Source of the DNA: a cyanobacterium endosymbiont of Epithemia turgida isolate EtSB Lake Yunoko
GTDB lineage: Bacteria > Cyanobacteriota > Cyanobacteriia > Cyanobacteriales > Microcystaceae
Reading direction: 5' to 3'
DNA: 32,000 bases
Assembly: GCF_000829235.1 (NCBI RefSeq)
Contig: NZ_AP012549.1
Span: 720,001 to 752,000, forward strand
The number at the start of each line of letters is the position of its first letter. Positions within the stretch are counted from its first letter, which is position 1. The notes under the pieces are model-generated. The model saw only the letters and a list, made by a program, of their open reading frames with translations. It did not search any database and was not told the DNA's origin. Position numbers and translations under genes: made by a program. Shown here one piece after another: positions 1-32,000 of the stretch.

Positions 1-1195
1 ACGGGTGGTTGATTCCCTAGGTCGCCCTATTGATGGTAAAGGGGATATAAACACTTCTGAAACTCGTCTAATCGAATCAATGGCCCCTGGGATTATTGCT
101 CGTAAATCAGTTTGTGAGCCCATGCAAACAGGGATTACAGCTATTGATGCGATGATTCCTGTGGGACGGGGACAACGAGAATTGATTATCGGTGATCGTA
201 AAACTGGAAAAACGGCAATTGCGATTGATAGCATCATTAATCAGAAGTCCGAAGACGTAATCTGTGTCTATGTAGCAATTGGACAAAAAGCGTCTACTGT
301 CGCCCAGGTAATAAGAACCCTCGAAGACAATGGTGCGATGGACTACACCATAGTCGTTGCCGCTAACGCAAATGATCCAGCTACATTACAGTATCTTGCC
401 CCCTATACAGGAGCCACCCTCGCTGAATACTTTATGTATAGGGGCAAAGCTACCCTGGTCATTTACGATGACCTCTCCAAACAAGCTCAAGCTTACCGTC
501 AGTTATCTTTGCTACTAAGACGTCCTCCTGGTCGGGAAGCTTATCCTGGTGATGTGTTCTATATCCACTCTCGTTTATTAGAACGTGCGGCAAAACTTAG
601 CGATAAGCTCGGTGGTGGTAGTATGACAGCGTTACCCGTGATTGAAACTCAAGCAGGTGACGTTTCTGCTTACATTCCTACTAACGTAATTTCTATTACT
701 GACGGACAGATTTTCCTTTCCAGCGATCTGTTTAACTCAGGTTTTCGTCCCGCTATTAACGCAGGGATTTCAGTAAGCAGGGTAGGATCTGCGGCTCAGA
801 CCAAGGCCATGAAAAAGGTTGCTGGTAAATTGAAGCTAGAATTGGCACAATTTGCTGAACTAGAAGCCTTCTCCCAGTTTGCCTCTGACTTAGATGCCAC
901 CACTCAGTCTCAACTGTCACGGGGTCAACGGTTACGTCAAGTATTGAAGCAGCCTGAAAATTCCCCCTTAGCAGTGTGGGAACAGGTAGCAATTTCCTAT
1001 GCAGGGTTAAATGGTTATCTTGATGAAATTGCTGTGGAGAAGGTGACTGAATTTACTATGGGACTACGGAACTATATTAAAACCAGTAAAGCCAAATTTA
1101 CTGAGATCGTTGGAACTGAAAAACAACTTACCGATGAAGCAGAAAGCCTCCTCAAAGAAGCTATCAAGGAACATAAACAGACCTTTGCCGCGTAA
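1..1195 (+). CDS. atpA: F1 ATP synthase alpha subunit, 5'-truncated by the window edge
   Basis: ORF 5..1195 is open to the window start. It carries Walker A 'GDRKTGKT' and the blocks '[27 protein letters not shown]' and '[25 protein letters not shown]', which are classic F1-alpha. The gamma subunit gene follows directly. Confidence 0.97.
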
Positions 1196-1300
1196 TTGAC
1201 CATAAATAAGTCAGTGGTTAGTCATTTCCTGACGAACGAGAAGGAGGGCTAACCACCCATGACCCCTTATGAATAATTAATCCCACAAAAAATAAAAAAT

Positions 1301-2245
1301 ATGCCTAACCTCAAAGCTATCCGTGATCGGATTAAATCAGTCAAAAATACAAAAAAAATTACTGAGGCTATGCGTCTGGTAGCCGCCGCTAAGGTTCGCC
1401 GAGCTCAAGAACAGGTAATGTCTACTCGTCCCTTTGCTGATAATTTAGCCAATGTTCTTTATAATTTGCTCAACCGTCTTAAGTATGAGGATGTGAGTTT
1501 ATCTCTATTGCAACAAAGACAGGTTAAAACCGTGGCTGTAGTTGTTGTCTCAGGTGATCGGGGGTTATGTGGTGGATACAACTCTTATGTGATTCGCCGT
1601 GCAGAACAACGCCAAAAAGAATTAGAAGCTCAAGGACTTGATTATTGTTTCATCACCATTGGAAACAAAGCGACTCAATATTTTTCTCGTCGCAAGGTCC
1701 CCATTCTAAGCAAGTACACGGGATTAAATCAAATTCCTACAGCCAATGAAGCTATATCTATTGCTGACGAGTTGCTGTCTCTATTTTTATCAGAAACAGT
1801 TGACCGAGTAGAGTTAATTTACACTCGTTTCGTTTCTGTTATAAGTTCTCGTCCGGTGATTCAAACTTTGCTACCTTTGACTCTTCAGGGGTTGGAAGTT
1901 GAAGATGATGAAATGTTCCGCTTAATTACCCGCGAAGGGAGATTAGGCGTAGAAAGGGAAACGATTACTCAAGAGATCGAGATCTTCCCTCAAGATATGA
2001 TTTTTGAACAAGATCCTCTGCAAATTCTTGATTCCTTGTTACCTCTGTATATCAACAACCAATTACTCAGGGGATTACAAGAAGCGTCGGCGAGTGAATT
2101 AGCAGCTCGGATGACGGCGATGAGTAACGCGAGTGATAATGCTGGTCAGTTGATCGACAGTCTTACTCTATCTTACAACAAAGCGCGTCAAGCAGCAATT
2201 ACCCAACAGCTAATGGAAGTAGTTGCTGGTGCTAATGCTTTGTAG
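1301..2245 (+). CDS. atpG: F1 ATP synthase gamma subunit (called atpC in cyanobacterial nomenclature)
   Basis: 314 aa. The N-terminus '[36 protein letters not shown]' and C-terminus '[20 protein letters not shown]' are typical gamma-subunit helices. It lies immediately downstream of atpA. Confidence 0.95.
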
Positions 2246-2279
2246 GAATTAGTTATCAGAACACTTTAACGATCTTTCG

Positions 2280-2313
2280 AGCGTTTAGAAATTTTTCTAG
2301 ACGCTTGCTCTTT
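2280..2313 (+). terminator. Candidate intrinsic terminator after the atp genes
   Basis: Arms agcgtttag (2280-2288) and ctagacgct (2297-2305) pair over 9 positions, one of them a G-U wobble. The stem is followed by tgctcttt. The U-tract is weak, so this is tentative. Confidence 0.3.
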
Positions 2314-2387
2314 AAAATAGAGGAAATACTTTTGGTGTCCTATCTATCTTGGTACTAGAATATCTTCGGTTGTCTAGGTTGACAATA

Positions 2388-2864
2388 GTGTACAAGGCAT
2401 ATCGCTATAGAATTTATCGCGACACCTGGCAAAAGCAAGCACTAGTCAAGATCTTTAGATGATGTCAGTGGTGTTGAGACTGTTCATATTTTAGACTAAT
2501 TTATAAAAATTATTAAAAGACAGATAGGGAGCTGTTCGATGTCTTTTGTCAGTACTTTAAAAGAACTATTCTTAGCTTAGTGATATTTCTTTTCGGTGCT
2601 TATCAGTATTTACCAGTTGTGAATGTAGGTCTATTGTGATGGTTAGTCCAATATATCTTTAACAAAAAAGAAAAATAACCAAAATAAAACAAGTTATTTT
2701 GCAAGCACAAAGAGAGTACACTCGTCGGAAGGTTATTTGATAAATTTCACTTCATAATTTATAGATGTAGAGTAAATTTTATGTACCAACTATCACATCG
2801 TACAATCAATCAAAACCAAGTAATTGCCGCAAAAAACGACGTAAAAGGCATAAGAAAACCCTAA
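2388..2864 (+). mobile_element. tnpB: Decayed IS200/IS605-family tnpB (OrfB) remnant with N- and C-terminal pieces and the middle deleted
   Basis: From 2388 the sequence reads VYKAYRYRIYRDTWQKQALVKIFR*CQWC, which resembles the canonical TnpB start 'KAYKYRIYPT.EQ...L...FGC.R.V.N'. At about 2714, EYTRRKVI* resembles the 'YTSQ.C' zinc-finger entry. At 2823-2864, IAAKNDVKGIRKP* resembles the C-terminal 'D.NAA.NI...G'. The pieces are in different frames, and only about 0.48 kb remains where about 1.2 kb is expected. Confidence 0.5.
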
Positions 2865-2914
2865 AAAATCTAACACTATTAATAATTATAACTAGATAAA
2901 GTTCTGTTCAACTA

Positions 2915-2946
2915 TCTCTGCTTGATACTTAAGTATCAAGCAGAGA
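2915..2946. repeat. 32-bp perfect palindrome (tctctgcttgatactt|aagtatcaagcagaga)
   Basis: Read directly; every position pairs. It lies about 50 nt downstream of the tnpB remnant stop, where IS605-family right-end hairpins sit. Confidence 0.9.
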
Positions 2947-3279
2947 ATAAAGGGAATATTTACATTGAAATTGACAAACTCTTCTATAGTTATTAAGACT
3001 TATAATGACTGCATGAATTAAGTAAGCAGATTGCCTCTTGATTTCAGTAATTGGATTTGCGAATGTTACAAAACCAATTATAGTTGTGACATCAACACCT
3101 CAATAAACGCAGAAAATTAAGTCTTAAGAACATGTAAGATACCTATGTATTAAGATTTATTACCTCTTAGACACAACGCGCAATGAAGTTGAAAGTCTCA
3201 AATATAATGCTTTGAACTGGGTGGGTAATTCATCTCACAATATACAATGTAAGGGAATCTTTTTAAGAGAAAAATAATT

Positions 3280-3948
3280 ATGTCAGAAATTGACATTGCC
3301 AGTTATATCGATAATAGCTTACTCAGTCCTACAGCAATTGCCCAAGAGGTAGAACAGTATTGTCAACAGGCTAATCAATTTGGCTTTCCCACTGTCTGTG
3401 TATATCCCTCCATGGTATCTCAAGCAACCGAATTACTTCAAAATAAGCAAACCCAAGTTTGTACAGTGGTTGGCTTTCCTACAGGAGCAACCACCTCAGC
3501 CGTCAAACTTTATGAAGCCAAAGAAGCAGTAGAAAATGGAGCAACGGAACTCGCTGTAGTAATCAACTTGGGATGGTTAAAAATTGGACTTTATGACAAA
3601 ATTTATCAAGAAATTGCCGAAATTTGTTCAGAAACGAGACAAACAGTTAAAGCTATTCTCGAAACTAATTTATTGACGGATACAGAAAAGCGACTCGCTG
3701 CCGAAATTTGTATGGATGGAGGGGCAACTTATTTAGAGACTAGTACTGGATGGTTTGGAGGGGCAACAGTCGCTGATGTAAGTTATCTTAATCAACTAAC
3801 TAAAGGACGAGTGGGTATTAAAGCTTCTGGGGGTATTCGGACTCTAGAACAAGCTTTAGCCCTAATCGAAGCAGGGGCAACTCGGTTGGGAACTTCTCAT
3901 GGGGTTAACTTAGTGAAACAACAACGTGATCCAGTACGAAACATTTAG
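3280..3948 (+). CDS. deoC: Deoxyribose-phosphate aldolase
   Basis: 222 aa. It has a DeoC-type TIM-barrel sequence with 'VKAILET' and the Schiff-base lysine block '[10 protein letters not shown]', plus 'GATRLGTS' at the C-terminus. Confidence 0.93.
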
Positions 3949-3975
3949 GGGATTTTGACAAAATATAATGAGCTA

Positions 3976-4821
3976 ATGAGTCGAATTTATAAAACCACAG
4001 GGATTATCTTAAAAAGAACACCTTTCGGGGAAGCTGATCGTTTAGTCAAAATTCTTTCACCAGAATTCGGTTTAATTCGAGCGATGGTCCCAGGGGCGAG
4101 GAAATATACATCAAAACTAAGCGGACGTAGCGAGTTATTTGTGGTTAATGATTTATTAATAGTCAAGGGGCGATCACTTGATCAAATTATCCAAGCCGAC
4201 ATCTTAAAATCTTACCCAAGATTGAGTAAAAATTTAGGAAAATTGGCTGCTAGTCAGTATTTAGCTGAATTGGTATTGTCCATAGCCTTAGAGCAACAAC
4301 CTCAATGGGAACTTTATGAACTCCTCAACGAACATTTACATCGCCTCGAAGAAATATCATCTGATCAAAGTTTACATAGTCATTTAGCCCAAGGGGTGTT
4401 ACATATATTGGTACTTGCGGGAATTAGTCCTCAAGTTCACACTTGTTGTTTGACTGGTGAAACGTTATCAGCCAATTTTAGTAATCCTCATTGGCGAGTA
4501 GGATTAAGTTTTAAAGAAGGAGGTTTGATAAAATTAGCAATTACAGAATCTTCCGTATCAACTAAACAAGAATACTCTAAAATCATCCGAACTTTAATTG
4601 ATCAACAACTAAATGCCGTAGAATTTAGTCTTTTGCAACAATTATTCCATCCTTATCTCCCGCAACTACGAAAAATCTTACCTCTAGAGTATCTCAATGA
4701 TTTCCTACCCTTAGCTTGGGTTCACATCGAACATATGCTACGTAATTATGCTCAATACCACTTAGGGAAATCTTTTCGGTCAGCCGATCTCATCAGTACT
4801 TTATCTCGGTTAGAGTTTTAA
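3976..4821 (+). CDS. recO: DNA repair protein RecO
   Basis: '[43 protein letters not shown]' is a typical RecO OB-fold N-terminus. The ORF track opens at TTG 3955, but ATG 3976 gives the canonical start. Confidence 0.85.
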
Positions 4822-4948: not shown

Positions 4949-6346
4949 ATGGATCGCCAATCTACCCCCTCTAAGCCACCAATGAGTCAAGGATTTATCC
5001 CTATTCTGCAGAACCCGCGTTTTTTAACGCTTTGGGTTGGACAAATTTTCTCTCAATTGGCTGATAAAGTTTATCTGGTCTTAATGATTGCCTTAATTGC
5101 TGGTCACTTTCAAGGAAACAATCAACCTATTAGTGGTTGGGTATCAGCGATTATGATTGCTTTTACTATTCCGGCGGTTTTGTTCGGTTCCTTTGCTGGG
5201 GTTTATATAGATCGATGGTCAAAAAAAGGGGTGTTAGTTATCTCTAATTTTGTACGAGGGGCATTAGTTTTCGTTATTGCTCCCCTAATCTGGTTATCCC
5301 AAGATAAAACCTTAGCATTACCTGTCTATTGGCTTCCTGTCTGGTTAAGACAGTGGCAATTACAAGTTCAAGATCACTTTTTTATTCCTTTGGGATTTTT
5401 ATTCATACTAATATTAACCTTTATAGATTCAACTATTACCCAGTTTTTTGCCCCAGCAGAACAAGTTACTATTCCTTTGATTGTTGAACGCCGTCATCTG
5501 CTTTCGGCTAATTCTCTCTTTACTACTACCATGATGGCTACGACCATTATCGGGTTTGCAATTGGAGATCCTTTACTAGAATTAGCTGCAACGTTAGCTA
5601 AATTTGTGGGATTATCTTGGGAACTCGGTAAATCTTTAGTTGTTGCCTTATCTTATCTGTTAGCGGGTTTCATTTTAATTTTTTTAAGGACAGGAGAAAA
5701 AAAAGAACACTACGAAAAAGAACGCTCCCATATATTTAAAGATATTCGCGATGGTCTTCATTATCTCAACAATAATCATCGAGTTCGCAATGCTTTAATT
5801 CAACTGGTAATTATTTTTTGTATTTTTGCAGCCTTGTCGGTATTGGCTGTCAGGATGGCTGAAACTATTCCAGGGTTAAAAGCTGAACAATTCGGCTTTT
5901 TATTGGCTTTTGGAGGTTTAGGAATGGCTTTTGGAGCAGGTATTTTAGGCAACTGGGGTCAACAGTTTAGCAAAAATCGATTAGGATTGTGGGGATCGTT
6001 GGGAATGGCAGTTTCCTTGGTGGGGTTATCCTTGTCTATAGACAATCTATGGCTAACTCTGTTGATGACCACATTTTTAGGATTATTTGCAGCTTTTGTC
6101 GGAGTTCCAATGCAAACTATGATTCAATCAGAAACACCTGTTGACATGAGGGGTAAGGTGTTTGGTTTGCAAAATAATGCGGTTAATATTGCTTTGTCTT
6201 TACCTTTAGCTTTAGCTGGTATTGCAGAAACTTTAGTGGGGTTGAAACCTGTTTTACTTGCTTTAGCTGGATTAGCAGTCGCAGGGGGAATTCTCACAGG
6301 GAATATAGGAAAAAATAGACCTGGCAATAAAATACCAGAATCATGA
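4949..6346 (+). CDS. Major facilitator superfamily transporter, substrate unknown
   Basis: 465 aa with about 12 hydrophobic segments and an MFS-like loop 'AGVYIDRWSKKG' after TM2. The substrate cannot be inferred. Confidence 0.85.
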   Translation: MDRQSTPSKPPMSQGFIPILQNPRFLTLWVGQIFSQLADKVYLVLMIALIAGHFQGNNQPISGWVSAIMIAFTIPAVLFGSFAGVYIDRWSKKGVLVISNFVRGALVFVIAPLIWLSQDKTLALPVYWLPVWLRQWQLQVQDHFFIPLGFLFILILTFIDSTITQFFAPAEQVTIPLIVERRHLLSANSLFTTTMMATTIIGFAIGDPLLELAATLAKFVGLSWELGKSLVVALSYLLAGFILIFLRTGEKKEHYEKERSHIFKDIRDGLHYLNNNHRVRNALIQLVIIFCIFAALSVLAVRMAETIPGLKAEQFGFLLAFGGLGMAFGAGILGNWGQQFSKNRLGLWGSLGMAVSLVGLSLSIDNLWLTLLMTTFLGLFAAFVGVPMQTMIQSETPVDMRGKVFGLQNNAVNIALSLPLALAGIAETLVGLKPVLLALAGLAVAGGILTGNIGKNRPGNKIPES

Positions 6347-6584
6347 CTGATTTCAAAAAAAAATAATCATAACTTCTTTACAAGATTTCTCCTTTAGTCA
6401 CGGATTATCAGTAATCTTTTTTATATAACAAATTTACAAAATTTATTCTAAACCTAAAATATAAGTATACGATATATTCTTCCTGATCATGTATTGAGAC
6501 TGTTTAATATTTCTAGTTTTTTCCCTGTAAATAAATTTGAATTTATTTATCCTTGCTATTAATCATTTACCATGATTTTAGATA

Positions 6585-8090
6585 TATTCTTTGATTTGTT
6601 CTGGTAAAAAAACTTGATTCATCACTAGGAAAATTTAATTCAATCACAAAATCAAGAAATAAAAATAGACCCGAAAACATTCAAATATACAGCGGTACCT
6701 ACGTTTTCTTGAGCAGGTGACAAACTAAACACAGTGATAGCTACCTTTTTCTCTAGTTTAGGTTTGTCCCTAGATTAGCCTATTTTATTGCTTGTTGGGG
6801 GACTGCTTCGATGCGCTCTTGCCGTATTTCCGTCCCGTTTTGAGAGGATAATAGGTTCTATCGCCCCATCTAATTCAGGAATAGCTATTTGTAAGGCTAC
6901 TTGGACAGGATGTAATCCTAGAACAATTTCTTTCCATTCTTGGTTAGGTTGAAATACAAGAGACAACGCACACATATAAGGACGGTTGAGGCGTTTTAAT
7001 GATTCGATTGCTTTTGGATAGTCTTGACGAGCTGGACCCATAACTAATACAAAACCTGTCAAAGAAACCATTGCCTCGACAATAGTAATTGTCTCTCCTC
7101 CTTTACTTTAATCTAAGAAATAAGCATCCATCGGGTTATAAAAGTCTAATCCTCCTGCCAATATAAAAAGCACCCTCGCTCCCATAGCTTCTAATTCCTG
7201 CACTGTAGCCACATAGTAAGCAAAGCATCATCCTCAATCGGATAAGTCTGTTGTAGAATCAATCTAATACAGGGGTCTGAAGGGTCTTTTTTTGAGACTA
7301 TCAAAAATAAATATCGATTCGACTATTGAACCATCTTAAATAAGAAGGAACATCCTTAAACATTTCCCTCGATAAAGGATGCCAAATTCCTATGTCAAGA
7401 TAGACTACTAGATCCTGATAGTTAACAGTTTTATCTTCGAGGAGATCTGGATAGGAATATTTGTGGAACAACATTACCAGAAAATTCTCTAAATTTTACG
7501 AAGATCTTCCCAACCAATATTGGAAACTCAACATAAGACTGCGAGCATTTTGAGCTTTTTCAACTGGAAAATACTTCAAAATTTGAGGCAAAGTCCGCAA
7601 CAAGTTTAACATAGTATCTTGAAACCATGCGCTGGAATTTTCCTTTCGTTTCCGCATAAATTGGGCGATTGCATTTTTATACTGTCTCAACTGAGCCATA
7701 GAAAACCTATCTAATTTGTTTAAGTGCATTATCTCGAGCATTGAGGGGAAGACCACCACGGCATCTCAATTATCCCGATGGGGTTCCATCTCGTCTAGGA
7801 CTTTATCCGCTAAATATTCAATAAAAATTAAAGAGGCAATAAATTAAGTTGGTACATACCACGTTATTCATAAATTATGTATATTTTTCAGTATTTATTA
7901 GTTATTTGACTATATAACCACTAATTTTTATGGCTAATTTAGGGTTATTTTTATTGATTGCTTCAACAACTACCGAAAGGGAACTTTGATATTGTGGATC
8001 TAAAACGATATAGACCACCTTTAGCAAAGAACGACCATTAATTGCCTCTGGAACGATATGCCGAACGGTGGACTTCACACGAGTAAACAT
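6585..8090 (-). pseudogene. chlH: Mg-protoporphyrin IX chelatase H subunit pseudogene (about the first 500 codons, shattered; the rest deleted)
   Basis: Colinear ChlH-like pieces are separated by stops and frameshifts. They include 'MFTRVKSTVRHIVPEAINGR..KVVYIVL..QYQS' followed by TAA, 'FIASLIFIEYLADKV', 'VVFPSMLEIMHLNKLDRFSMAQL..AIAQFMRKRKENS', 'LMLSFQYWLG', 'GIWHPLS', 'LEAMGARV', '[35 protein letters not shown]', '[27 protein letters not shown]' and 'KKVAITVFS...[15 protein letters not shown]'. Confidence 0.87.
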
Positions 8091-8452
8091 CTATTACAGT
8101 ACTCCTTAATTTTATGATGGTCTAAACGCTGTAAAGCATTAATTCAGAGTTGGCAAAAAATTTTATAGGACTCTATATGTGTTTCTACCCAAAATAGCTC
8201 TCACATGAGCATTTTATCGAGTATTTGACATAATTTCTAAAGAAGTATTCCATGATTCTCTACAAGAATTGACATACTGGCGATAGTAGTTTCTTTTTTT
8301 CTTGTTTATAACAACTAATTTTATATTCATTGATGAATTTATTATTGACTAAATATACTTACATTTTAGATGCTATCATTGCTATGATAATGCTCACAAA
8401 ATGAATTTAATGAGTGAGATTGGAGATTAATCATTAAAAATAACAAGACAAA

Positions 8453-8554
8453 AATTTTAGTTTGTATTTTTTTATCAAAAGATGATGTTTAATAAAAAAA
8501 TACAAACTAAAATTCGATAGCCATAAGCTATAGTATTTTTTTTATTAAACATCA
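8453..8554. repeat. Two interleaved perfect inverted repeats (23-bp and 18-bp stems)
   Basis: 8453-8475 pairs perfectly with 8492-8514. 8483-8500 pairs perfectly with 8537-8554. The two stems share the A-run at 8492-8500. Confidence 0.85.
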
Positions 8555-8900
8555 CTATCAATTAAAACAACAGTTAAACTTTATTTATTATTTTGTTTAT
8601 AAAACTAAAATATAAAAACTCCTAAGTGTCTATCATAAAGTTAATTTAGCTAGTGAAAAAGTTAAAACTACAGCAAACACTCACACAATGTTTTTAATAT
8701 TTGTGTTCACAAGTCTGCGATGTGCCCAGTCTAACTTGAAAACCACAATTTGTCTTGATTTGGATTCGAGATAAATTTTGACCTACAAGTGATCACTAAT
8801 AGCCATAGCATTAAGGTTAAGACGATTCACAAACAATGATAAGATTCAATTTAGTATAAACTTCACTGTCTATTTACACACTTAAAGGAAAAGCCACTTC

Positions 8901-10199
8901 ATGATTCACGATATCTTCATGCCTGCACTCAGTTCTACCATGACCGAGGGAAAGATCGTCTCTTGGTTGAAGTCTCCAGGGGATAAAGTAAAAAAAGGAG
9001 AAACTGTTGTTGTAGTTGAATCAGATAAAGCGGATATGGATGTGGAATCTTTCTATGAGGGTTATCTAGCAACCATTTTGGTAGAGGCTGGAAAAGAAGC
9101 TCTCGTAGGAACAGCAATTGCCCTCGTGGCAGAGACCAAAGCAGAAATTGCTCAAGCACAGCAAAAAGCTCTCTCAAGCCCAGAGCAAACTCTTCAAACT
9201 CCCTCAACTGTAGCCTCAATCTCCACTCTTGAACTAGCTACGACACCAACAACAACTTTTTCGACGAATGCTTCCAAAACCGATGAAAGTCGTGGCACTA
9301 ATGGCCGTATAATTGCCTCACCACGAGCGAAGAAACTAGCTAAACAATTAGGTATTGAGCTCACAACTATTCAGGGCAGTGGACCTTATGGACGCATTGT
9401 TGCAGAAGATGTAGAACGCACGACGGGGAAACCCCAAACTGCAACTATTACCCCGACTTCATCTTCTGCATCTCAATCGACTACCACTCCGAATACGTCG
9501 CCGACTCCTGTAACTGTTATTTTAGAAGAAACTATTCCCCTTACTACCTTACAAAAAGCAGTAGTACAAAATATGGTAGCGACAGTACAAGTTCCTACCT
9601 ATCATGTAGCTTATACAATAACTACCGATAGTTTAGATAAACTCTATAAGATAATTAAATCTAAAGGGGTAACTATGACGGCTTTATTAGCAAAAGCAGT
9701 GGCTGTTACCCTTCACAAACATCCTTTACTTAACGCTAGTTACAGCAACCAAGGAGGAATCCACTATAATAGGTCAGTTAACGTTGCTTTAGCAGTAGCA
9801 ATGCCCGATGGAGGACTAATTACTCCTGTTCTACAGAATGCTGATAAAATCGATATTTATTCTCTATCTCGTACTTGGAAAGATTTAGTCGAACGCGCTA
9901 GAAAGAAACAATTACAACCCCAAGAATATCAAAACGGAACTATTACCATCTCAAATTTAGGAATGTTTGGGGTAGACCATTTCGATGCAATTTTACCTCC
10001 AGGACAAGGAGCAATTTTAGCTATTGGTAAATCTCGTCTCCAAGTAGTAGCTACTCCAGAAGGATTGACTGGAGTAAAAAGTCAAATGACAGTCAATATC
10101 ACTTGCGATCATAGGGTAATTTATGGGGCCCATGCAGCTGCGTTTTTGCAAGATTTAGCTCAATTAATCGAAACTGATGTCAAATTACTAACCATGTGA
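8901..10199 (+). CDS. pdhC: Dihydrolipoamide acetyltransferase (E2 of the pyruvate dehydrogenase complex)
   Basis: The lipoyl domain is 'VVVVESDKADMDVESF'. The E3-binding domain is 'ASPRAKKLAKQLGIELTTIQGSGPYGRIVAEDVE'. T/S/P-rich linkers are present, and the catalytic motif is 'DHRVIYGAHAA'. Confidence 0.93.
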   Translation: MIHDIFMPALSSTMTEGKIVSWLKSPGDKVKKGETVVVVESDKADMDVESFYEGYLATILVEAGKEALVGTAIALVAETKAEIAQAQQKALSSPEQTLQTPSTVASISTLELATTPTTTFSTNASKTDESRGTNGRIIASPRAKKLAKQLGIELTTIQGSGPYGRIVAEDVERTTGKPQTATITPTSSSASQSTTTPNTSPTPVTVILEETIPLTTLQKAVVQNMVATVQVPTYHVAYTITTDSLDKLYKIIKSKGVTMTALLAKAVAVTLHKHPLLNASYSNQGGIHYNRSVNVALAVAMPDGGLITPVLQNADKIDIYSLSRTWKDLVERARKKQLQPQEYQNGTITISNLGMFGVDHFDAILPPGQGAILAIGKSRLQVVATPEGLTGVKSQMTVNITCDHRVIYGAHAAAFLQDLAQLIETDVKLLTM

Positions 10200-20674: not shown

Positions 20675-20680
20675 GGATGC

Positions 20681-23087: not shown

Positions 23088-23775
23088 ATGTTTCGAAAGA
23101 CAGCTAGGCTCTCTAAATTCTCTCGTCAACTATTAGAGGAGTTGTTTGCTTTACCCTCCAATAAAGATACTTTAGGCGGGACGGCTTATTTTATTCTAGA
23201 AAAAACTAGCAATATCTTGATGGATTATCCTGAATGAAATCAACAAGTTGAAGACTTTCTTCAACAACACGGGGGAGTGCGTTGTTTATTTATCACTCAT
23301 CGTAGTGCTGTAAGTAAATTGGTAAAATCCCTACAAAAAACTCTAAAGTGCTCAGTTGTGATCCAAGTAAGAACAGGAGGACTATCTGCTTCCAGAGACA
23401 GCCGTAACCTCTTTTAAAAAAGAAGCCTGTCTTAGTCCAAATATTAAAGGAAGGAGTTTGGATTCCTGTTAATTCCCCAGGTTTTTCTTATCTTTATCGG
23501 AGCTTCCATGGAGGAATTCTTTTTACTGAACTGCACTTTTGTGTGATCTTTTAGGGACTCTAAGACCTTGACGGTTAGCTAAAACTTTCCATTGGTTACG
23601 TCAGCTAAAGAGTGTTCAGATGTTACGCAATCACTTCAACTCCAGCTCCCTTAATTAGATTTTCCCAGGAGCCAATATAGAATTCTTACTAGACAAAGGA
23701 CTGATTGACAGAGCTTATGAGCAATTATCTGTTTTAAATTTAGATAATTTTTGTAAAACTCCCATCAGACAATAA
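23088..23775 (+). pseudogene. Metallo-beta-lactamase-fold hydrolase pseudogene
   Basis: From ATG 23088 it reads '...GGTAYFILEKTSNILMDYPE', then TGA (23235-23237) at a position where I recall homologues having Trp. It continues 'NQQVEDFLQQHGGVRCLFITHRS...VVIQ', and after frameshifts 'IPVNSPGFSYLY...GGILFT'. I count at least three further stops or frameshifts before the terminal TAA at 23773-23775. Confidence 0.7.
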
Positions 23776-24780
23776 TTTTATTTATGTTTCACTAGTTCTT
23801 GGATTCTTATAACTCTATCCTCTTTTTTAAAAAAAATTAACATTTTTTAACATCAGATGATATCCTCCTAGATTTAGGAGAATATCATCTGATGGCAGAA
23901 TTATTTAGATTGTTCGGCAACAAAACCAAGTCTGTTGATGAACTTAGTGTACAAGCATAGCAAAAAAAAAGAAATGTTTCATTCTCGAAGCTGATGATGC
24001 AAAAAGATGAGGAGATGCGGAGTTTATGAATAAATATCTTCAATAAAGACAAATATCACTGATAGCAATAGGTTTGTTCCTAAAAATCTACTTCACCCTA
24101 AACCTCAAATCAGTCCCGCAGCAGAATCAAACATTTAACGTTGTCGTAGCGAAAGTAACATAGATATGTCTCTTAAAATGGTTCGCAAGCTTAATAAGTA
24201 AGTTGATCTAGCTTGATAAACATTCTTTATAAGACACTAAATAACTAGGTGAAGTAGACATGATTAATTTATTTTTCCTATGTTTAAAACTAAGTTTTTT
24301 AAAATAAATACAAAATTTAGATAGTGTAATAATTTTAATTATTTTTAATATCTAAAATAAATTTATTTTTTATATCATTATGACATTTTATTGATTTTTT
24401 CAAGAAACTAATTAATTCAAAGTTAATTTGCCAATAGCATAGATAAGCTTTAAGTTTGCTCTGATTGTAGAGAGTAAGTTTGTATATATTCTCTAGTAAT
24501 TTATTGAAATATTTTTTTTTGATAGCTGATTTTGATCTGCTTTAAAATTATTTAATTCTCGACAAAACCTCTATATATACTTATGTTTATAGATATCTTA
24601 TTTATAATTTTTTATATTAAATATATTATTTACTTTGTATAAAAAAATATATTTAATGATAATACTTTTTATGTTTATTTCTTATTTATTTTATACTGAT
24701 TTTAAATGACTATTAACTTAGTTAATTATTTTATAAATGAACTAAAAATATTATATATTCTCTGGTTTAATTGGTTATGT

Positions 24781-24825
24781 TAAAAGTTATTAGTTTACTT
24801 TAATAAAGTAAACTAATAACTTTTA
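24781..24825. repeat. 45-bp perfect palindrome centred on 24803
   Basis: I checked taaaagttattagtttacttta-a-taaagtaaactaataactttta position by position. All 22 pairs around the central base match. Confidence 0.9.
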
Positions 24826-25956
24826 TGATTAATGTACAGGATACTTATTGAATTTAGTAATATTCTCTTATTCCTACAAAATTTTGTTTTTGATGTACTT
24901 ATTTTTTAGCTTGAATCACCTAGAATACAGTTAAAATAAAAAAATAATAGTTTAATCATTTTTTATTTCAACTGTTTTCTTATATTGTAAATAGGTTTAA
25001 ATGATAATATTCAATACTAAATACATATAGATCATGAATACATTATTTAATGATATTATTTAAAATAACAATGATTATTATAGTCGCCAACTATTTGCAC
25101 AATTTATTGTACAAATCAGGTAAAATAATTCTTTTTTTATTAAAATTAGTTCTATAGTTATGGACTTTATTGGAAATAAAAAAACTTAATTTCATAAAAA
25201 TTTATTTATTTACTGAGTTACTAAAATTTTTACTAATAATTTTATAAAATTGTTTTTTATTTAGAATAATAAATTCTAACTCATTAATTAAATCAATAAG
25301 TTTTTTATCTAAATCTTTGTTTATTTTTTAAATAAAATTTCATATGTGATATTATTCACATTTCGTTAATTTATCCTTTTTGTTATTTATTTTATTAAAG
25401 GTTAATTATGTTATTATTTTATAGCTTAATTATTATTTTTTTTGAAAAAGCTTTTAATATGTCAACAATCCATATAATCATTAGTAGCACATTACTGAAG
25501 CAATAACTAGCAAATAATTAACTATTAAGAAATAAACCCTGATCCAATCATCACCTTAAGATATCTAGTTTTACTGTTAAATGGAAATCCCCCTAATTGT
25601 AGCAAATCTACCTCATAAATAGTCCATAAATCAATGCTGTAACTATACAATAAATGAGTATTAATATAATCATCGATGATATTTATTTTTTATTTAGTTA
25701 CTTTGAAAACAGATTAGATTTCTTATAAACCTAAAAAAATGAAATTATAAATAATAAATTTAAAAGAAAGTTATATGCGAATTAATAAGTTTTTTAAAAA
25801 AATTCTTGTTTGAGTTGTATTAATTGAAAACATTCCATTAAAATACAATACCAGTAATAAAAAATTCAGAAATAATATTTTTTATCTATTAAAATAATCT
25901 ATGTATTAAGATATAATGCCATCGACAGTCATATAAACTCTGCTGATTTATACATT

Positions 25957-27150
25957 ATGAAAAATTTTTTTCAAATCAACCAAAACTTCACCTCTACAAC
26001 TAACACAGATGAATCGTTTTTTCAATTTCTTATTCCCGAAGGCCCATCTATTATTTTAGGTGAACAGTTCTCTAATACTTTGGTAATGCCCCTAGAACCT
26101 AAGTCCACTACTATGTTTGGTCCAAGAGGTGTTTGTTTAGTATCTGAAACTGGTCCGTTATGGATAGCAGACACAGGACACCATCGACTGTTGGGATGGA
26201 AAAATCGGCCTGAAACTGATGGCAAACCCGCAGACTTGGTCATCGGACAAACAGACTTTTATCAAGAAGGGCAAAACGCTAATGGAACTCCCCAAAGCAA
26301 TACTTTCAGTGTTCCTACTGGGATTTGCACTTGTGGAGAAGGATTAGCAGTGGCTGATGCCTGGAACCATCGGGTCTTAATTTGGAAGAAACTACCTCAA
26401 GATCATAATGTTCCTGCGGATATTGTGTTAGGACAAACAGACTTTCACCAAAATCAAGTTAATCGAGGAAAAATTAATACAGCTGCGGATAGGATGCATT
26501 GGCCTTATGGCGTTTTTTACCATCTAGGTTATTTTTTTGTCGCAGATACCGGAAATAGACGGGTTTTAGTGTGGAATCGACTTCCGGAAGTTAATGGACA
26601 ACCGGCAGATTTTGTTCTAGGACAGTCCCAGATGAATCTGCGGGACGAAAATGGAGGAGGACCTCCAACAGCTTCAAGTATGCGTTGGCCTCATACATTA
26701 GCAATTTGGCAAGATAACCTAGTTGTAACTGATGCGGGAAATAATCGTGTAATGATTTGGGATGGAATACCAACCGAAAATAATGTTCCTTGTAAATTAG
26801 TTTTAGGTCAATCAAATTTTGAAGATGTAGAACTTAATCAAGGGGTCTATTGTCCATCTTCTAGTAGTTTAAGTATGCCGTATGGCGTAGCTGCTTGTAA
26901 GCAATGGTTGATGGTGGCAGACACGTCTAATTCTCGTTTATTAGGGTGGAAAAATTCCCTAGAGATGGGTATCCCTTCCCAAGGATTAATGGGTCAACTT
27001 AACTTTCTTAGTAAAGGAGAGAATCGTTCTTACGGGAGGACTTATCGTAATAGTTTAAATTGGCCTTATGGAATCTCGGTTTGCGGTGATACGGCTATTA
27101 TTGCTGATTCTGGAAATAATCGAGTTTTACTATGGTCTATTAAAAGTTGA
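25957..27150 (+). CDS. NHL-repeat (six-bladed beta-propeller) protein with no obvious signal peptide
   Basis: Six repeats of an 'AD(T/S)GN.R(V/L)L.W' blade motif are present: ADTGHHRLLGW, ADAWNHRVLIW, ADTGNRRVLVW, TDAGNNRVMIW, ADTSNSRLLGW and ADSGNNRVLLW. Five of them are preceded by 'P.D.VLGQ.(D/N)F' linkers. Confidence 0.85.
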   Translation: MKNFFQINQNFTSTTNTDESFFQFLIPEGPSIILGEQFSNTLVMPLEPKSTTMFGPRGVCLVSETGPLWIADTGHHRLLGWKNRPETDGKPADLVIGQTDFYQEGQNANGTPQSNTFSVPTGICTCGEGLAVADAWNHRVLIWKKLPQDHNVPADIVLGQTDFHQNQVNRGKINTAADRMHWPYGVFYHLGYFFVADTGNRRVLVWNRLPEVNGQPADFVLGQSQMNLRDENGGGPPTASSMRWPHTLAIWQDNLVVTDAGNNRVMIWDGIPTENNVPCKLVLGQSNFEDVELNQGVYCPSSSSLSMPYGVAACKQWLMVADTSNSRLLGWKNSLEMGIPSQGLMGQLNFLSKGENRSYGRTYRNSLNWPYGISVCGDTAIIADSGNNRVLLWSIKS

Positions 27151-28719
27151 AATAAATAAGTAATAAATTCCAAATAGCAGTAAAAAATATATTTTTTATA
27201 TCTCTTATATTTAGAGAAATTAGAATTACAATTTAATCACTTTTATTAACACTTTTTATGGTAACGATTTTGTAAAAAATTTTGAGAAAAATTATATTGA
27301 TTGCAAAATATTCTTCCGTTAATTTTATGAACTTTCATGTGATGCTATTTTCCTTGTATAAGGGTATTTTAGTTATTTTTATTTCTAAAGTCCATCTTTG
27401 AATAATAACTTTTCAAGTTTAAATATTATTAATAAATCTTAGGTTTACTCATTTATAAATTTTTTATATATTTATATATTTTTTAGAAAACCTTACTAAT
27501 AAGGTTATTTAAATCTAGGTAAAATAAAGCTAAATATCAGTAAACTTATAAACTAACTTATCTTAAGATTAAGAGTCGTCATTATTTTCATTACCTTTTC
27601 ACATAAACTAAATCAAGAAAAGACATACATTGTAAATAAGTCTCTACTATAGAAGATACAAATAGAAGTTAGCCCTCATGTCCAACATGATGCATAAAAC
27701 CAGTGTTTGTCATCTAAGTTTTTTGAGTAGGTTTTAATTTCTCGTAAATGGATGAAAAGGAAATTATATCGAATTGATAATATAAAATTATCTAGTAAAA
27801 TATCAAATATAAAAATTTCAGAGTTGAAAATTAACAAAATTTCTGTATCTATAAGCTCTCTTTTTAATAAAAATTAATATATTATCAATCTCTTCTACTT
27901 TTCTTCACTCAAAATAGGGAATAGTTTTCCAAATTTAACGCCTAACCTAATTGTCGTAATGCTTTTTTCTAAAAAATAAGTACTATAGTATCTAATTGTC
28001 ATCTTAAACAAGAAGACCAAAGTAGAATCATTAAACAGAGCAGAAAAAGAGAATAGAAAAATAGATAAAGCTAGTCTTAAAATGTCAACTAGATATAAGT
28101 ATCTATTCTATTTCTTAAGATGGAAATGAGAGTAACATTCTGCATATTTTATTTTTGTCGGTTTTGTTGTTGGTATTGACTAATTATATGAACAATCATG
28201 CCAGAAGGAAAATTAGGAAACGGAATTAAATCAGCAAAACAAAAAACAATCGCACTAACCAGGAAGAATTTTAAAAAACAACTCATGATGATAAACCTTT
28301 GTGCAATCTTCCTTTCACTATCCTAGAATTAACTTGCTTAAATCTTCCCCTAATTGGATGAATCACTTGAACTCTTATTTTTATGAAAATTTAATTGATT
28401 AACCACTAACCCATCAACAGAACTGATATAGCAATGACTACTGTAGTAATTCACAAAGTCATCAATCATTAATTTAGCTAAATCAATTAGCTAAACTAAT
28501 GTCTGAATATTTCAGAATAGCCAGAAATTGATAATTATATAGAAATCCTTAGGATCAAAAGATAGTTGTTTGGAGTCAACCTAAAATGACGAGCAACAAT
28601 GCCCAAAGATTAATTGCGAACGCGATCCTCTCAGTTATCCTATTATATCCTATTGTTTTAGATGAGCACCTAAACAAAATTCATTGTAGGGTGACATTTC
28701 CTAAGAAAATAATTATATT

Positions 28720-29076
28720 TCAAGGAAATTTACTAGTAACTTTACCAATAATATGATAAGGAGTTATAAAACCAAAAGACCGACTATCATTACTTTCTGC
28801 TTTATTTTCTCCCAACAAAAAACAATTACCATTTTTGTTAACTAAAACAACTCGTTTAATAATCTTTAAATCCTGACGGTGAGGGTGCCTAGCAACGACC
28901 AAATCCCCTATTTCTGGCAAACGACGCCGGTAGGCCCTTGTGTCTACAAGAACTTCATCTCCTGCTTGAAGCAGAGGAAACATAGAAGTCCCTGTAACAC
29001 AAAACCGTTGACGCAACCTAAACAACCAAAGAAGCAATTCTTGATTGTTACTAGCAAGGATCAACTGCATGCCCAC
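28720..29076 (-). CDS. sodX: NiSOD maturation endopeptidase (S26 signal-peptidase family)
   Basis: 118 aa. The Ser/Lys dyad blocks are 'GTSMFPLLQAGDEVLV' and 'KIIKRVV', followed by 'GENKAESNDSR'. It lies 18 nt downstream of sodN on the same strand. Confidence 0.85.
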   Translation of the reverse strand: MGMQLILASNNQELLLWLFRLRQRFCVTGTSMFPLLQAGDEVLVDTRAYRRRLPEIGDLVVARHPHRQDLKIIKRVVLVNKNGNCFLLGENKAESNDSRSFGFITPYHIIGKVTSKFP

Positions 29077-29094: not shown

Positions 29095-29607
29095 TTAGCT
29101 AGCTCTTACCCAGGCTACATTCCGATTTTTGGTAGACCAGAACATAGTATGAATTTTTTCAACAGTAGCAAGTAATTCGGTTGCTTGGTCTAAGTTAACT
29201 TCTACTTTACACGCAGAGCAAAGTTTAGCTGCCTTCCAAAAAATATCGTGAAGATCAGGATATTTTTCTAAATGTACAGGTTTAAAGTAGTCAGTCCAAA
29301 GGATAAGTAATTCTTCTTTAGTTTTTTGTGCTTGCTCTTCCTTAATTGCAATATAGCGGAAAAGAATATTAGCAGTGGCATGATCTCCGACAGAAGGATT
29401 AAGGTCTAGGATTTTCTTAGTCATGGACAATACTGCTTCAGCATAGATGCGAGCAGAGGCGGAGTCATAAACACCACAAGGTCCATCGCAATGAGCACTA
29501 ACTTCTGGCGCGCAGAAGTGCTTTTTAATGTGAGTAGCAATTCTGTTGAGCATAGTTTTCTCAGATGTATCTAATTTTTCAAAAATAACGTTTGCAAACG
29601 TTATCAT
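29095..29607 (-). CDS. sodN: Nickel superoxide dismutase precursor (true start probably ATG at 29553)
   Basis: The Ni-hook 'HCDGPCGVYD' follows a leader ending in '...PEVSA'. 'ARIYAEAVLSMTKK' comes next. The internal Met19 gives a 20-aa leader 'MLNRIATHIKKHFCAPEVSA', which as I recall matches the usual cyanobacterial leader length. Confidence 0.93.
   Translation of the reverse strand: MITFANVIFEKLDTSEKTMLNRIATHIKKHFCAPEVSAHCDGPCGVYDSASARIYAEAVLSMTKKILDLNPSVGDHATANILFRYIAIKEEQAQKTKEELLILWTDYFKPVHLEKYPDLHDIFWKAAKLCSACKVEVNLDQATELLATVEKIHTMFWSTKNRNVAWVRAS
29585..29604. promoter_or_regulatory. 20-bp perfect palindrome ATAACGTTTGCAAACGTTAT, candidate operator in the sodN leader
   Basis: The palindrome is read directly. 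It lies 32-51 nt upstream of the probable sodN start (29553), or inside codons 2-8 if the 29607 start is real. An operator function is inference only. Confidence 0.35.
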
Positions 29608-30099
29608 AAGGAACTATTTTTAGGGAAAAACTTTCTTGGTAACTTCCCTACTCCTAATTTTAATTGAAAAGTGTAGGCATTTCAGATCTTAAAATTATAG
29701 ATTCTTGCCTCTACCCTTATGGCTTCCTAAAGAGTTGCACTGTGTTAATTATTTAAATATTGTTTTTGTCTTTGAATACAAAGATTTGGAATGTTGGAAT
29801 TGACCGAGAAAAAATGGACGGTTTTTAGGCTTATATAGCTTGGACAAATCAACCTTTAAGTAGTGTTCTGACTTTCTCTTATGCTTCCTTTCGACAAAAA
29901 GTAAAACCTAGCAATATCATTTGATTTGTTAAAAAGCTCAAAAAGACTAGCTTTTAGCCAATTTATGCTTGTACTCGTTTAATTAGTAATTGAATTTGAT
30001 TAGTTACTTCTGATGATTCAAAAGAGAGAAAAAAATTACTACTAGCTACCATTTACAAGCCCAAAGGAGCAAGACTAAACAATCCTCTTAGATCTTTCA

Positions 30100-30950
30100 A
30101 ATAATTCCCTATTATAAATAATCCAAACTTACGCTGATAAATCCATCCTCTTGTTTGCCTAAGTCTACTAAAACTTTACAATAGCGAATAGAACGACTGT
30201 CTTAAGAATTTTTTCTGTCTAAAATTTATTGTTTAATGTGAGCAATTTAGTCCATTGGAAAACCGTCCATGGAACAAACGACATTACCAAAATAGCAACG
30301 AGCATACCCCCAAGCTCCTTTGGTTCTGTCATTATGGGATTATAGGCGAATCTCAGTTTCTATATCCCTTAAATCAACTATCATACGTTGTGTTTTGGCG
30401 AGAGCGTGAGGACTGACAAAATCGTGGTTGACCGTAACGTAAGAGCATTACATTCAAAATGACAGGCTCCACAGATAATACAGCTACTAGTTTGATTGAG
30501 ATGTAATCACTCTTCAGTGGTTTGCCGGAATTCACGTTCAGAAATAGAATATGCTTTGACATTAAGGTATGGTTCTATAGCTTCTAATTTTTTTCCAAAA
30601 AAAGACATGTCCACCACTCAACCCTTAACTACTGGAAGATTTTTGGGGTCAATGGTCATGGTTGACGGGTTTTGCTTCCCAGAGTATCCGAATTTTTCAA
30701 GTTCACCACCCATATTTTCTTTGCAGGTAAGGGCAGAACGACCATTAATTTTCATGCTACAACTACCACAGATTGTAGCATGAAAATTTTTGCGAAAGGC
30801 AAGGGTTCCATCTTTTTTCTATTTAATACAATTGAGGCAATCTAAAATAGTTGAGTTTGACTTCACGTATAAGCTATAAGTCCATAAATAAGGTATGTTA
30901 TTTAACTTTTGTTTTGTCGTAGAATTTTAAATTGAACTTTTATAGGGAAA
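30100..30950 (-). pseudogene. sdhB: Succinate dehydrogenase / fumarate reductase iron-sulfur subunit pseudogene
   Basis: The minus strand reads 'STILDCLNCIK*KKDGTLAFRKNFHATICGSCSMKINGRSALTCKENMG...TIDPKNLPVVKG*VVDMS', then after a frameshift 'LEAIEPYLNVKAYSISEREFRQT', 'SSCIICGACHFECNAL', and 'WGYARCYFGNVVCSMD' where 'WGCTRCYFCN.VCP' is expected. In-frame TAG and TGA codons, frameshifts and lost cluster cysteines are all visible. Confidence 0.82.
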
Positions 30951-31514
30951 ATATAGGGTGATTTATCAGAAGGGAAGTAAGGATAACCCTATCTATTAGT
31001 TTAGTGCACCAACACATTCACTAAAATATCTTAATCATTGTTCCACTGCAGTCGCAGTAGAAATTATCGAAAGTCTACAATCTCTATGGAGTATCCTCTT
31101 CTTTAGCCTTCTTTTAAGAAGACAATTAAACGGTGAGGTTTTTAAAACTTCTGGGACAATTCCATAGATCGAAATCCTAGCAAATGATTCTGCGATCTTT
31201 AGATTTAATCCTGTCGTATACCCATAAGTATATTCCCCAAAACTCAGTATCACAAAGGTTATCCAGATTTGTAGAATCTAACTTTTAAAAACTTATTTTT
31301 AGACTGAGCAACTCAAATCCATCACGATCTTAGTGGTAAATTTTCTTGAGGGGAAGCACTTCTACTTGCATTTTGTCTCCTTGAACTGTCTGCTTCTCCC
31401 GTTCATAATTGTTGAAAATTTTCTTGATTTTATTAGGAAGATAACGCTATATTTTTGATATGATCAATAAAAGCAACGATCATTAAACTTCAATCAAGGA
31501 ACATTGATAACATC

Positions 31515-31910
31515 ATGACCGACAAACCAATCCCTTTAACGGGAAAAGCCCTACTTCAAAAAGTCAAAGAGCTATCCCACAAACCAAGGAGAGAAACAGC
31601 CAAAGATTGTGGCTATTACTCGGTTACAAAGGACGGGCAAGTCCGCGTTAATTTGACAGAGTTCTATGATGCAGTGTTGGGAGCAAAAGGAGTTCCTCTT
31701 GAGCCAGGAACTGCTAAAGATGGTCGAGGACGTGAACCCACCTACCGTGTAAGTGTCCACAAAAATGGTCAAATTGTCATCGGCTCAACATACACCCAAG
31801 AGATGGGATTGAAACCTGGAGATGAGTTTGAAATTAAATTAGGATACAAACACATTCACCTCAAACAAATTGGAGATGATGGAAGGGTTGTTGAGGAAGA
31901 AGCGGCTTAA
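31515..31910 (+). CDS. Cyanobacterial AbrB-family transcriptional regulator (cyAbrB / CalA-CalB type)
   Basis: 131 aa. The conserved N-terminal part is 'LTGKALLQKVKEL...ETAKDCGYYSVTKDGQVRVNLTEFYDAVLGAKG'. The C-terminal SpoVT/AbrB swapped-hairpin block is 'GQIVIGSTYTQEMGLKPGDEFEIKLGYKHIHL'. Confidence 0.88.
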   Translation: MTDKPIPLTGKALLQKVKELSHKPRRETAKDCGYYSVTKDGQVRVNLTEFYDAVLGAKGVPLEPGTAKDGRGREPTYRVSVHKNGQIVIGSTYTQEMGLKPGDEFEIKLGYKHIHLKQIGDDGRVVEEEAA

Positions 31911-32000
31911 GAATTATTTGATCTAGACAAAGATTATAGAATCTCTTAAGCCTAAAAAACTCCATTGGATGGGTTTACATTCACCTGTTTTTATTAGGGT

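Follow-up and report, generated by a model that had tools for sequence, protein, structure and literature searches.

Layout of the window

The stretch of cyanobacterial DNA analysed here (the window; 32,000 nucleotides) holds 18 intact genes, all of which read normally with translation table 11, and seven long spacers free of long open reading frames (ORFs), in which six dead genes can be recognised: chlH (magnesium chelatase subunit H), sdhB (succinate dehydrogenase/fumarate reductase iron-sulfur subunit), a gene for a metallo-beta-lactamase (MBL)-fold protein, tnpB of an insertion sequence (IS) of the IS200/IS605 type, a gene for a TldD/PmbA-family metalloprotease and a gene of 106 codons (Table 1). 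With a probability of roughly 93%, we take the window to come from a spheroid-body chromosome, a spheroid body being the cyanobacterial endosymbiont of a rhopalodiacean diatom, in which genes are dying by relaxed selection, drifting toward AT and being slowly deleted.

Summed over the 18 ORFs, coding sequence (CDS) amounts to 16,844 of the 32,000 bases (52.6%). The seven spacers of at least 1 kb, each 1,034-3,020 bp long, take up 13,964 bases, and their GC content is 0.294 vs 0.404 in the CDS and 0.353 over the whole window. As a control for density, coverage by ORFs of at least 100 amino acids (aa) was measured around the same gene, that of an FHA-domain class A penicillin-binding protein (PBP), in 80 genomes. 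It is 0.52 at the window's own locus, 0.55-0.63 at the loci of three sister endosymbionts, 0.71 at the compact locus of the E. pelagica endosymbiont and 0.77-0.82 at free-living Crocosphaera and Cyanothece loci, while the 58 other cyanobacterial loci have a median of 0.83 (range 0.58-0.94). The sparse coding is genuine and atypical of cyanobacteria. No tRNA gene, no Rfam family and no nif gene was found within the 32-kb window.

A sequence-only reading of the same stretch had taken about half of it (~16.8 kb) as coding, in a layout unlike that of free-living cyanobacteria. Both statements are borne out, and all the ORF coordinates that it quoted match. It had counted six AT-rich spacers on the kilobase scale; the stretches it listed and their AT-richness stand, but seven of them reach 1 kb. 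Their coordinates as ORF-free stretches are also right, yet one contains an intact, conserved ORF of 45 aa. The four corpses that it could make out (tnpB, chlH, MBL-fold and sdhB) were all verified. As to the gene graveyard of which it spoke, the corpses are real and two more came to light, but they are recognisable for only ~4.8 kb of the 13.96 kb of spacer DNA (~35%).

Table 1. Dead genes, spacers and intact genes of the window, with positions counted from its first base.
Feature	Position	Strand	Remarks
Dead genes
tnpB (IS200/IS605-type)	~2390-3150	+	heavily decayed
chlH	6661-8090	-	codons 1-479 of 1,329 left
TldD/PmbA-family metalloprotease	16698-17137	-	codons 19-165 of ~480, 7 stops
106-aa gene, hydrophobic N-terminus	17488-17805	+	premature TGA at 17668-17670, 60 codons left
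MBL-fold gene	23059-23772	+	234-aa gene; frameshift at 23366/23371, 5 in-frame stops
sdhB	29966-30992	-	nearly full length
Spacers and features within them
Spacer 1	2246-3279		1,034 bp, GC 0.31; tnpB corpse
Spacer 2	6347-8900		2,554 bp, GC 0.32; chlH corpse
Spacer 3	10200-11582		1,383 bp, GC 0.30; no recognisable gene
Spacer 4	16403-18899		2,497 bp, GC 0.29; two corpses (TldD/PmbA, 106-aa gene)
Spacer 5	22937-25956		3,020 bp, GC 0.25; MBL-fold corpse, then extremely AT-rich block
AT-rich block	24230-25450		16.5% GC (0.164-0.21 for 24.2-25.5 kb); no detectable gene homology
Spacer 6	27151-28719		1,569 bp, GC 0.25; nothing recognised except the 45-aa ORF
45-aa hydrophobic ORF, MSCFLKFFLVSAIVFCFADLIPFPNFPSGMIVHIISQYQQQNRQK	28149-28286	-	intact; below the length cut-off of the ORF scan
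Spacer 7	29608-31514		1,907 bp, GC 0.34; sdhB corpse
Intact genes
atpA	5-1195	+	intact ORF cut by the window start; end of ATP synthase operon
atpG	1301-2245	+	intact; last part of ATP synthase operon
deoC	3280-3948	+	Pfam DeoC; TIGR00126, E 3e-73
recO	3955-4821	+	Pfam RecO_N/C
MFS transporter	4949-6346	+	Pfam MFS_1
Pyruvate dehydrogenase E2 (dihydrolipoamide acetyltransferase)	8901-10199	+	intact
DUF948 gene	11583-11978	-	Pfam
YtxH gene	11975-12355	-	Pfam
purH	12460-14010	+	Pfam
FHA-domain class A PBP	14147-16402	-	Pfam; orthologues known
cysK	18900-19865	-	TIGR01139, E 6e-140
purQ	19973-20674	-	intact
purS	20681-20962	-	intact
M50 site-2 protease	21452-22936	-	intact
NHL-repeat protein	25957-27150	+	intact; conserved across cyanobacteria including UCYN-A
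sodN maturation peptidase	28720-29076	-	TIGR02754, E 3e-24
Nickel superoxide dismutase sodN	29095-29607	-	TIGR02753, E 3e-58
AbrB-like regulator	31515-31910	+	intact; upstream region 31240-31514 conserved

Relationship to the spheroid bodies

When the PBP was compared across genomes, one per species, the window's protein proved 94% identical to that of the R. gibba, 93% to that of the R. gibberula and 91% to that of the Epithemia clementina endosymbionts, all of them spheroid bodies. It is 85% identical to the PBP of Cyanobacterium sp. uoEpiScrs1, named as the E. pelagica endosymbiont by Abresch et al., and 67-77% identical to those of free-living Cyanothece and Crocosphaera. AtpG and pyruvate dehydrogenase E2 share 99% identity with the Epithemia adnata endosymbiont (CP076462, 2.78 Mb), whose DNA is 97-98% identical to the window across 12.8 kb; this is the best match among the named genomes compared, none of which equals the window exactly. 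Gene order and spacers are colinear with every endosymbiont locus fetched (L002-L005, L082, L087, L088, L091 and L092), which stand for the E. adnata endosymbiont and six further spheroid-body genomes, and free-living relatives have only fragments of this gene order; the ATP synthase operon, with its Pfam ATP-synt families, is present in the relatives as well. These relationships support placing the window, as far as sequence comparison goes, in a spheroid-body (diazoplast) chromosome of the E. adnata / E. turgida clade, near the Crocosphaera/Cyanothece/Rippkaea group. Every defining feature of spheroid-body genomes that the window allows to be tested was found in it, the loss of photosynthesis being represented by dead chlH, its sole photosynthesis-related gene.

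The PBP of Unicellular cyanobacterium SU2 (L006, NEED01000005) is 84% identical to that of the window, above any named free-living Crocosphaera or Cyanothece. Its PBP locus is dense (0.78 ORF coverage) and without synteny to the endosymbionts. Among non-reduced relatives SU2 may be the closest, and as an outgroup it may be useful.

Dead genes and their living counterparts

The chlH corpse is interrupted by 6 in-frame stops and spread over three or more frames, and the 3' part of the gene, ~2.5 kb, has been deleted. What is left still matches Pfam CobN-Mg_chel (E 3e-35) and DUF3479 (E 2e-28), and two of its fragments persist as small ORFs (6775-7071 and 7496-7759). The E. clementina and E. pelagica endosymbionts have the gene intact, with a 1,329-aa ORF (L004 and L005, which served as tblastn references); the L004 protein is assigned to NF009140, magnesium chelatase subunit H, with 2,230 bits, and at the E. 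pelagica locus L092 the gene is likewise called full length (1,329 aa). The R. gibberula endosymbiont (L003) has an unbroken ORF of 1,270 aa that runs off the end of the locus, and in the R. gibba endosymbiont the gene is full length yet shattered. EtSB is reported to have lost all ten chlorophyll a (Chl-a) genes and RgSB to have kept nine, chlH among them (PMC5638926), and the state of chlH in the window matches this contrast.

A 513-bp segment of the chlH corpse (window 6568-7080) is missing from the E. adnata endosymbiont (L082) and kept in the window and the outgroups. This indel is the largest difference between the window and its 97-98% identical E. adnata counterpart. Since the outgroups retain the segment, the deletion occurred in the E. 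adnata lineage, which indicates that genome reduction is still continuing.

The sdhB corpse extends over three frames with 11 in-frame stops. It matches Pfam Fer2_3 (E 2e-12) and, by tblastn, the cyanobacterial SdhB at L043:4065-5114 (E 3e-68), itself a match to NF009227 (E 2e-155); in the E. pelagica endosymbiont sdhB is called intact with 275 aa (L088:13449-14276). The MBL-fold corpse matches an intact ORF of 234 aa at L004:1658-2359 (tblastn E 8e-83) as well as L005 and L087, the gene being intact in these three sister endosymbionts. Against Pfam Lactamase_B the intact orthologue gives E 7.5e-5, just above the cut-off. Its identification as an orthologue of the 254-aa gene that precedes the NHL gene in free-living relatives was ruled out, as the two have no blastp similarity.

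Because chlH, the MBL-fold gene and sdhB are alive in sister endosymbionts, their deaths are recent and lineage-specific. The E. pelagica endosymbiont, which has the most compact of these genomes (2.48 Mb), keeps all three intact (L088:13449-14276 and L092:10884-12945), and they are dead in the window, which belongs to a larger genome. Genome size is thus decoupled from the number of surviving genes, and compactness reflects the removal of corpses rather than further gene loss.

Spacer 4 is 62-82% identical in the sister endosymbionts, with large indels near 18378, and contains two corpses. The TldD relic matches L007:6012-7451 of the free-living Cyanothece sp. UBA12306 (tblastn E 7e-20), where the gene is intact, syntenic beside the PBP gene and carries Pfam PmbA_TldD domains 1-3. 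In UBA12306 the gap from a 122-aa ORF to the PBP gene (L007:6012-9818, ~3.8 kb) is filled by tldD, a 453-aa PmbA/TldD-like ORF and ORFs of 139 and 172 aa; the matching interval of the window, 16403-17457, measures ~1 kb, and its sole recognisable remnant is the 440-bp relic. The 106-aa gene has no Pfam or NCBIfam match. It is full length in three endosymbiont loci (L003, L004 and L005) and in free-living UBA12306 (L007), with E-values of 4e-29 to 9e-47, and the TGA of the window stands where all four relatives have a conserved CGC (Arg). The half that follows the TGA is still in frame and conserved (65-73% identity to the endosymbionts, 52% to UBA12306), so its inactivation looks very recent.

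The tnpB corpse required a profile of its own, a hidden Markov model (HMM) built from three Pfam-verified cyanobacterial TnpB proteins, with E-values taken relative to the 24 translated frames searched. The model matches the orthologous spacer of L091, from a sister endosymbiont with a genome of 3.10 Mb, at E 7e-18, that of the E. adnata endosymbiont at 8.7e-6 and the window at 3.3e-3 (2739-2858). Two further pieces are weak and colinear, one at 2400-2471 (the N-terminal KAYRYRIY) and one at 3037-3150 (CDINTSINAEN, resembling DRDxNAAxNI). In the window alone, tnpB is barely detectable (local TnpB HMM and tblastn, iE 0.075), and regular expressions for TnpB motifs found nothing convincing in its six frames. 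The identity is settled by the less decayed L091 spacer, which matches TnpB and whose positions 792-1160 align in DNA to window 2728-3107. Orthologues of spacer 1 are 998 bp long in the E. adnata endosymbiont, 1,364 bp in L091 and 481 bp in the E. pelagica endosymbiont. No ORF of the window matches TnpB, and no intact IS element was found in it.

A perfect palindrome of 32 bp (2915-2946) lies inside the tnpB corpse. It is one of several perfect or near-perfect spacer hairpins with arms of 16-27 nt, the others being at 8453-8514, 23851-23894 and 24781-24825. The hairpin at 23851-23894, directly downstream of the dead MBL-fold gene, may be that gene's old terminator.

In spacer 6, the 45-aa ORF has syntenic homologues in free-living UBA12306 and in two endosymbionts, those of R. 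musculus and E. pelagica (E 1e-15 to 1e-27), and no NCBIfam match. It is probably an unannotated small membrane protein that survives in an otherwise dead spacer.

Divergence, deletion and mutational bias

Against the E. adnata endosymbiont, CDS is 1.04% divergent (0.71, 0.50 and 1.89% at the three codon positions) with a single, in-frame indel in 7.1 kb, and the spacers are 2.76% divergent, 2.7 times as much as the genes, with 14 indel events in 4.6 kb. Taken one by one, spacer 1 shows 2.5% divergence and 3 indels, spacer 2 shows 2.7% and 7 indel events (the 513-bp gap included) and spacer 3 shows 3.2% and 4 indels. Divergence at or above the third-codon-position rate, together with the many indels, means that there is no detectable constraint on the spacer DNA. 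In comparison with the more distant endosymbionts, CDS remains fully aligned at 90-95% identity and the spacers are 75-84% identical; the E. pelagica endosymbiont has a counterpart left for 22-84% of the spacer bases, depending on the spacer.

Spacer substitutions were polarised with two outgroups. In a small sample of 63 spacer events, 40 changes run from GC to AT and 17 from AT to GC, with per-site rates of 0.051 and 0.009, that is, a 5.5-fold bias toward AT and an implied equilibrium GC of 0.15. The GC content of the features descends in steps, from 40% in intact CDS to 37% in the chlH and MBL-fold corpses, 35% in sdhB, 31% in tnpB and 28% in the TldD relic, and further to 16-25% in the unrecognised blocks, with 22% in the left part of spacer 6 and 16.5% in the AT-rich block of spacer 5, which sits at the estimated mutational equilibrium. 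We infer that these steps form an age ladder of gene death.

A few short islands in the spacers are conserved across the endosymbionts (2272-2332 downstream of atpG, 31240-31514 upstream of the AbrB gene, and 28129-28257), and the spacers themselves persist in several endosymbiont genomes. Both facts would fit spacers that are functional non-coding DNA kept by selection, such as regulatory sequence, small RNAs or nucleoid-organising AT tracts. Such a role is highly improbable for the spacers at large, as they diverge faster than third codon positions, gain indels about 20 times more often per base than genes, have individually lost 16-78% of their length in the E. pelagica endosymbiont and contain no Rfam family. 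The conserved parts are explained by freshly dead genes that are constrained elsewhere, the 45-aa ORF, a probable terminator of atpG and the upstream region of the AbrB gene, a probable promoter.

Spacer DNA without recognised genes

About 65% of the spacer DNA matched nothing: spacer 3, positions 8100-8900, 17900-18899 and 23800-25956, and most of spacer 6. Four approaches were used: a Pfam search with stop-free fragments (each at least 25 aa) joined end to end, tblastn with genes that lie nearby in free-living relatives, a tblastn comparison with plasmids, and a consensus of five genomes. The Pfam search detected chlH and sdhB and overlooked the TldD, MBL-fold and tnpB relics; on fragments it is thus insensitive to old corpses. 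Fragments of spacers 1, 3 and 6 had no match among 72,556 plasmids. The free-living neighbours of atpG, the NHL gene and pdhC (from UBA12306, Rippkaea PCC 8801 and Crocosphaera XPORK-15E) gave no significant tblastn match to the spacers, with the exception of the TldD relic, the 106-aa ORF and the 45-aa ORF. Spacer 3 is the fastest-evolving of the spacers compared: it is 83% identical to its counterpart in the R. gibba and 76% in the E. clementina endosymbiont, and only 22% of it can be aligned in that of E. pelagica. A majority consensus of its five endosymbiont copies contains no ORF longer than 52 aa, and it matched neither the genes adjoining pdhC in free-living relatives nor Pfam.

Several of these results weigh against the preferred reading. 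One is the unmatched two thirds as such, and the polarised substitutions are few. Moreover, the genes for alpha-amylase, moaA, dtd, hydantoinase, ribD, PhyH and putA, which flank atpG, pdhC and the NHL gene in free-living relatives, have left no trace in the window, so that either ancestral synteny differed or their corpses are gone. Finally, the 2.1-kb AT-rich stretch at 23800-25956 has no counterpart at the same junction, between the MBL-fold and NHL genes, in the E. pelagica endosymbiont (~420 bp) or in the two free-living relatives (~300 bp in Rippkaea PCC 8801). It could thus derive from an ancient insertion instead of a resident gene. Within it, the block at 24230-25450 has a counterpart in the R. 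musculus endosymbiont that cannot be aligned, and none in that of E. pelagica.

Much of the unrecognised DNA might, accordingly, consist of decayed insertions (IS elements, miniature inverted-repeat transposable elements, prophage or other acquired AT-rich DNA) that arrived ahead of the symbiosis or in its early phase. An IS-type tnpB is in fact among the corpses, the spacers carry several hairpins, and free-living relatives are rich in transposases (Abresch et al.). We nevertheless regard this as unlikely for most of that DNA. Spacers 1, 3 and 6 show no similarity to plasmids, a GC content of 16.5% equals the estimated equilibrium and so says nothing about origin, and UBA12306 has two small genes between the neighbouring gene and NHL, so that resident DNA is possible at this junction too. 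The insertions would also alter only the source of some of the dead DNA and not the process of its decay. We infer that about two thirds of the spacer DNA consists of older corpses.

That the low density is an artefact of assembly or sequencing, or reflects a non-standard genetic code, is next to impossible: its only formal hint is the single TGA that separates one corpse from the intact gene, while window 2917-24010 (21,094 bases) is base-for-base identical to a contig that Logan assembled separately from run SRR29904087, other endosymbionts have these spacers in their complete genomes too, corpses included, and reassignment of stop codons is ruled out by the frameshifts and large truncations of the corpses and by a TGA that stands for Arg (CGC) of the relatives, not Trp.

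How the layout may have arisen

The preferred reading, a spheroid-body chromosome losing genes under relaxed selection, would run as follows. The bearer would be an obligate, vertically inherited, non-photosynthetic and nitrogen-fixing endosymbiont. Restriction to the host would free genes that are redundant with host functions from purifying selection, among them chlH (chlorophyll synthesis), sdhB (a link between the tricarboxylic acid cycle and respiration), the TldD-type protease, the MBL-fold hydrolase, tnpB and others. Stops and frameshifts would then accumulate under the strong bias from GC to AT, toward an equilibrium near 15% GC, and the remains would disappear only gradually, through deletions between a few bases and a few kilobases in size. 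As deletion lags behind inactivation, the genome would come to consist of about half dead DNA. Host provisioning is the probable cause of the relaxed selection.

Ongoing reduction in a host-restricted lineage, as the sequence-only reading had proposed, agrees with the spheroid-body relatives, the neutral rate at which the spacers diverge, their indels and the 513-bp deletion. Its guess that the relatives would be of the Crocosphaera/Cyanothece/Rippkaea type was right by sequence relationship. The findings that could have spoken against it turned out otherwise, as spacers do have homology to genes in syntenic positions, free-living relatives are denser and the 21,094 bases recur in an independent assembly.

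Going further, the spacers could amount to a dated stratigraphy of gene death, with the same genes alive or dead across sister endosymbionts, that might serve as a quantitative clock for early organellogenesis. This is a tentative idea that we think rather doubtful at present. If true, the stratigraphy, extended to many genomes, would yield rates of inactivation, AT decay and deletion for each lineage, and it would imply an independent, recent loss of succinate dehydrogenase and magnesium chelatase in the E. adnata / E. turgida clade.

Spheroid bodies have an age on the order of ten million years and are a young counterpart of the UCYN-A nitroplast. They are a leading model of a bacterium becoming a nitrogen-fixing organelle, and the window illustrates the stage at which gene death outpaces deletion. 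In this lineage the latest losses concern chlorophyll synthesis, the iron-sulfur subunit of succinate dehydrogenase, a protease of the TldD type and a mobile element. The half-empty layout is a published signature of the spheroid-body lineage; it is ordinary for that lineage, already known and not novel. The value added here is confirmation and local detail, of which specialists may use the deaths of sdhB, the MBL-fold gene and the 106-aa gene, the GC ladder, the 513-bp deletion and the 45-aa ORF.

Comparison with known systems

The closest systems are the other spheroid-body genomes (EtSB, CP076462, RgSB, R. gibba 17Bon1, EcSB and E. pelagica), with which the window has gene order and orthologous spacers in common. 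Published counts give 225 pseudogenes in EtSB and 286 in RgSB (PMC5638926). Spheroid-body genomes are described as having low coding content owing to degraded gene fragments, with GC of ~33-35% (PMC5638926; Abresch et al.), and as having no intact transposases and high synteny, mobile elements having been lost early (Abresch et al.). Within the group, the Chl-a pathway genes are dead in genomes of the EtSB type and intact in those of the RgSB type. Compared with the E. adnata endosymbiont, the window retains the 513 bp of chlH corpse; compared with that of E. pelagica, three more genes have been lost from it (sdhB, chlH and the MBL-fold gene) and far more dead DNA is kept. With gene density taken as a proxy for pseudogene removal, UCYN-A ranks high, EpSB intermediate and the other rhopalodian endosymbionts low (PMC12903740).

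Similar stages exist outside this lineage. 'Nostoc azollae' 0708, Richelia intracellularis, Sodalis glossinidius and Mycobacterium leprae have early-stage reductive genomes with ~50% coding, many pseudogenes, AT-biased mutation, slow deletion and core functions kept, and in all this the window is alike. These four typically show IS proliferation and rearrangements as well. In contrast, a single decayed tnpB is the only trace of mobile elements in the window, and all the compared endosymbionts agree in gene order. Measured against the early-reduction model of McCutcheon and Moran (2012), as cited by Abresch et al., the window shows the peak of pseudogenes, the minimum of coding density, relaxed selection, AT-biased mutation and net deletion, and it does not show the proliferation of mobile elements and the rearrangement. 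The missing IS proliferation agrees with the published exception that spheroid bodies form.

UCYN-A, the nitroplast (Candidatus Atelocyanobacterium thalassa), is a related nitrogen-fixing endosymbiont or organelle that likewise derives from Crocosphaera-type cyanobacteria, and it has homologues of the window's AtpG and NHL protein. Its genome is compact, with high gene density, whereas the window represents a stage of low density.

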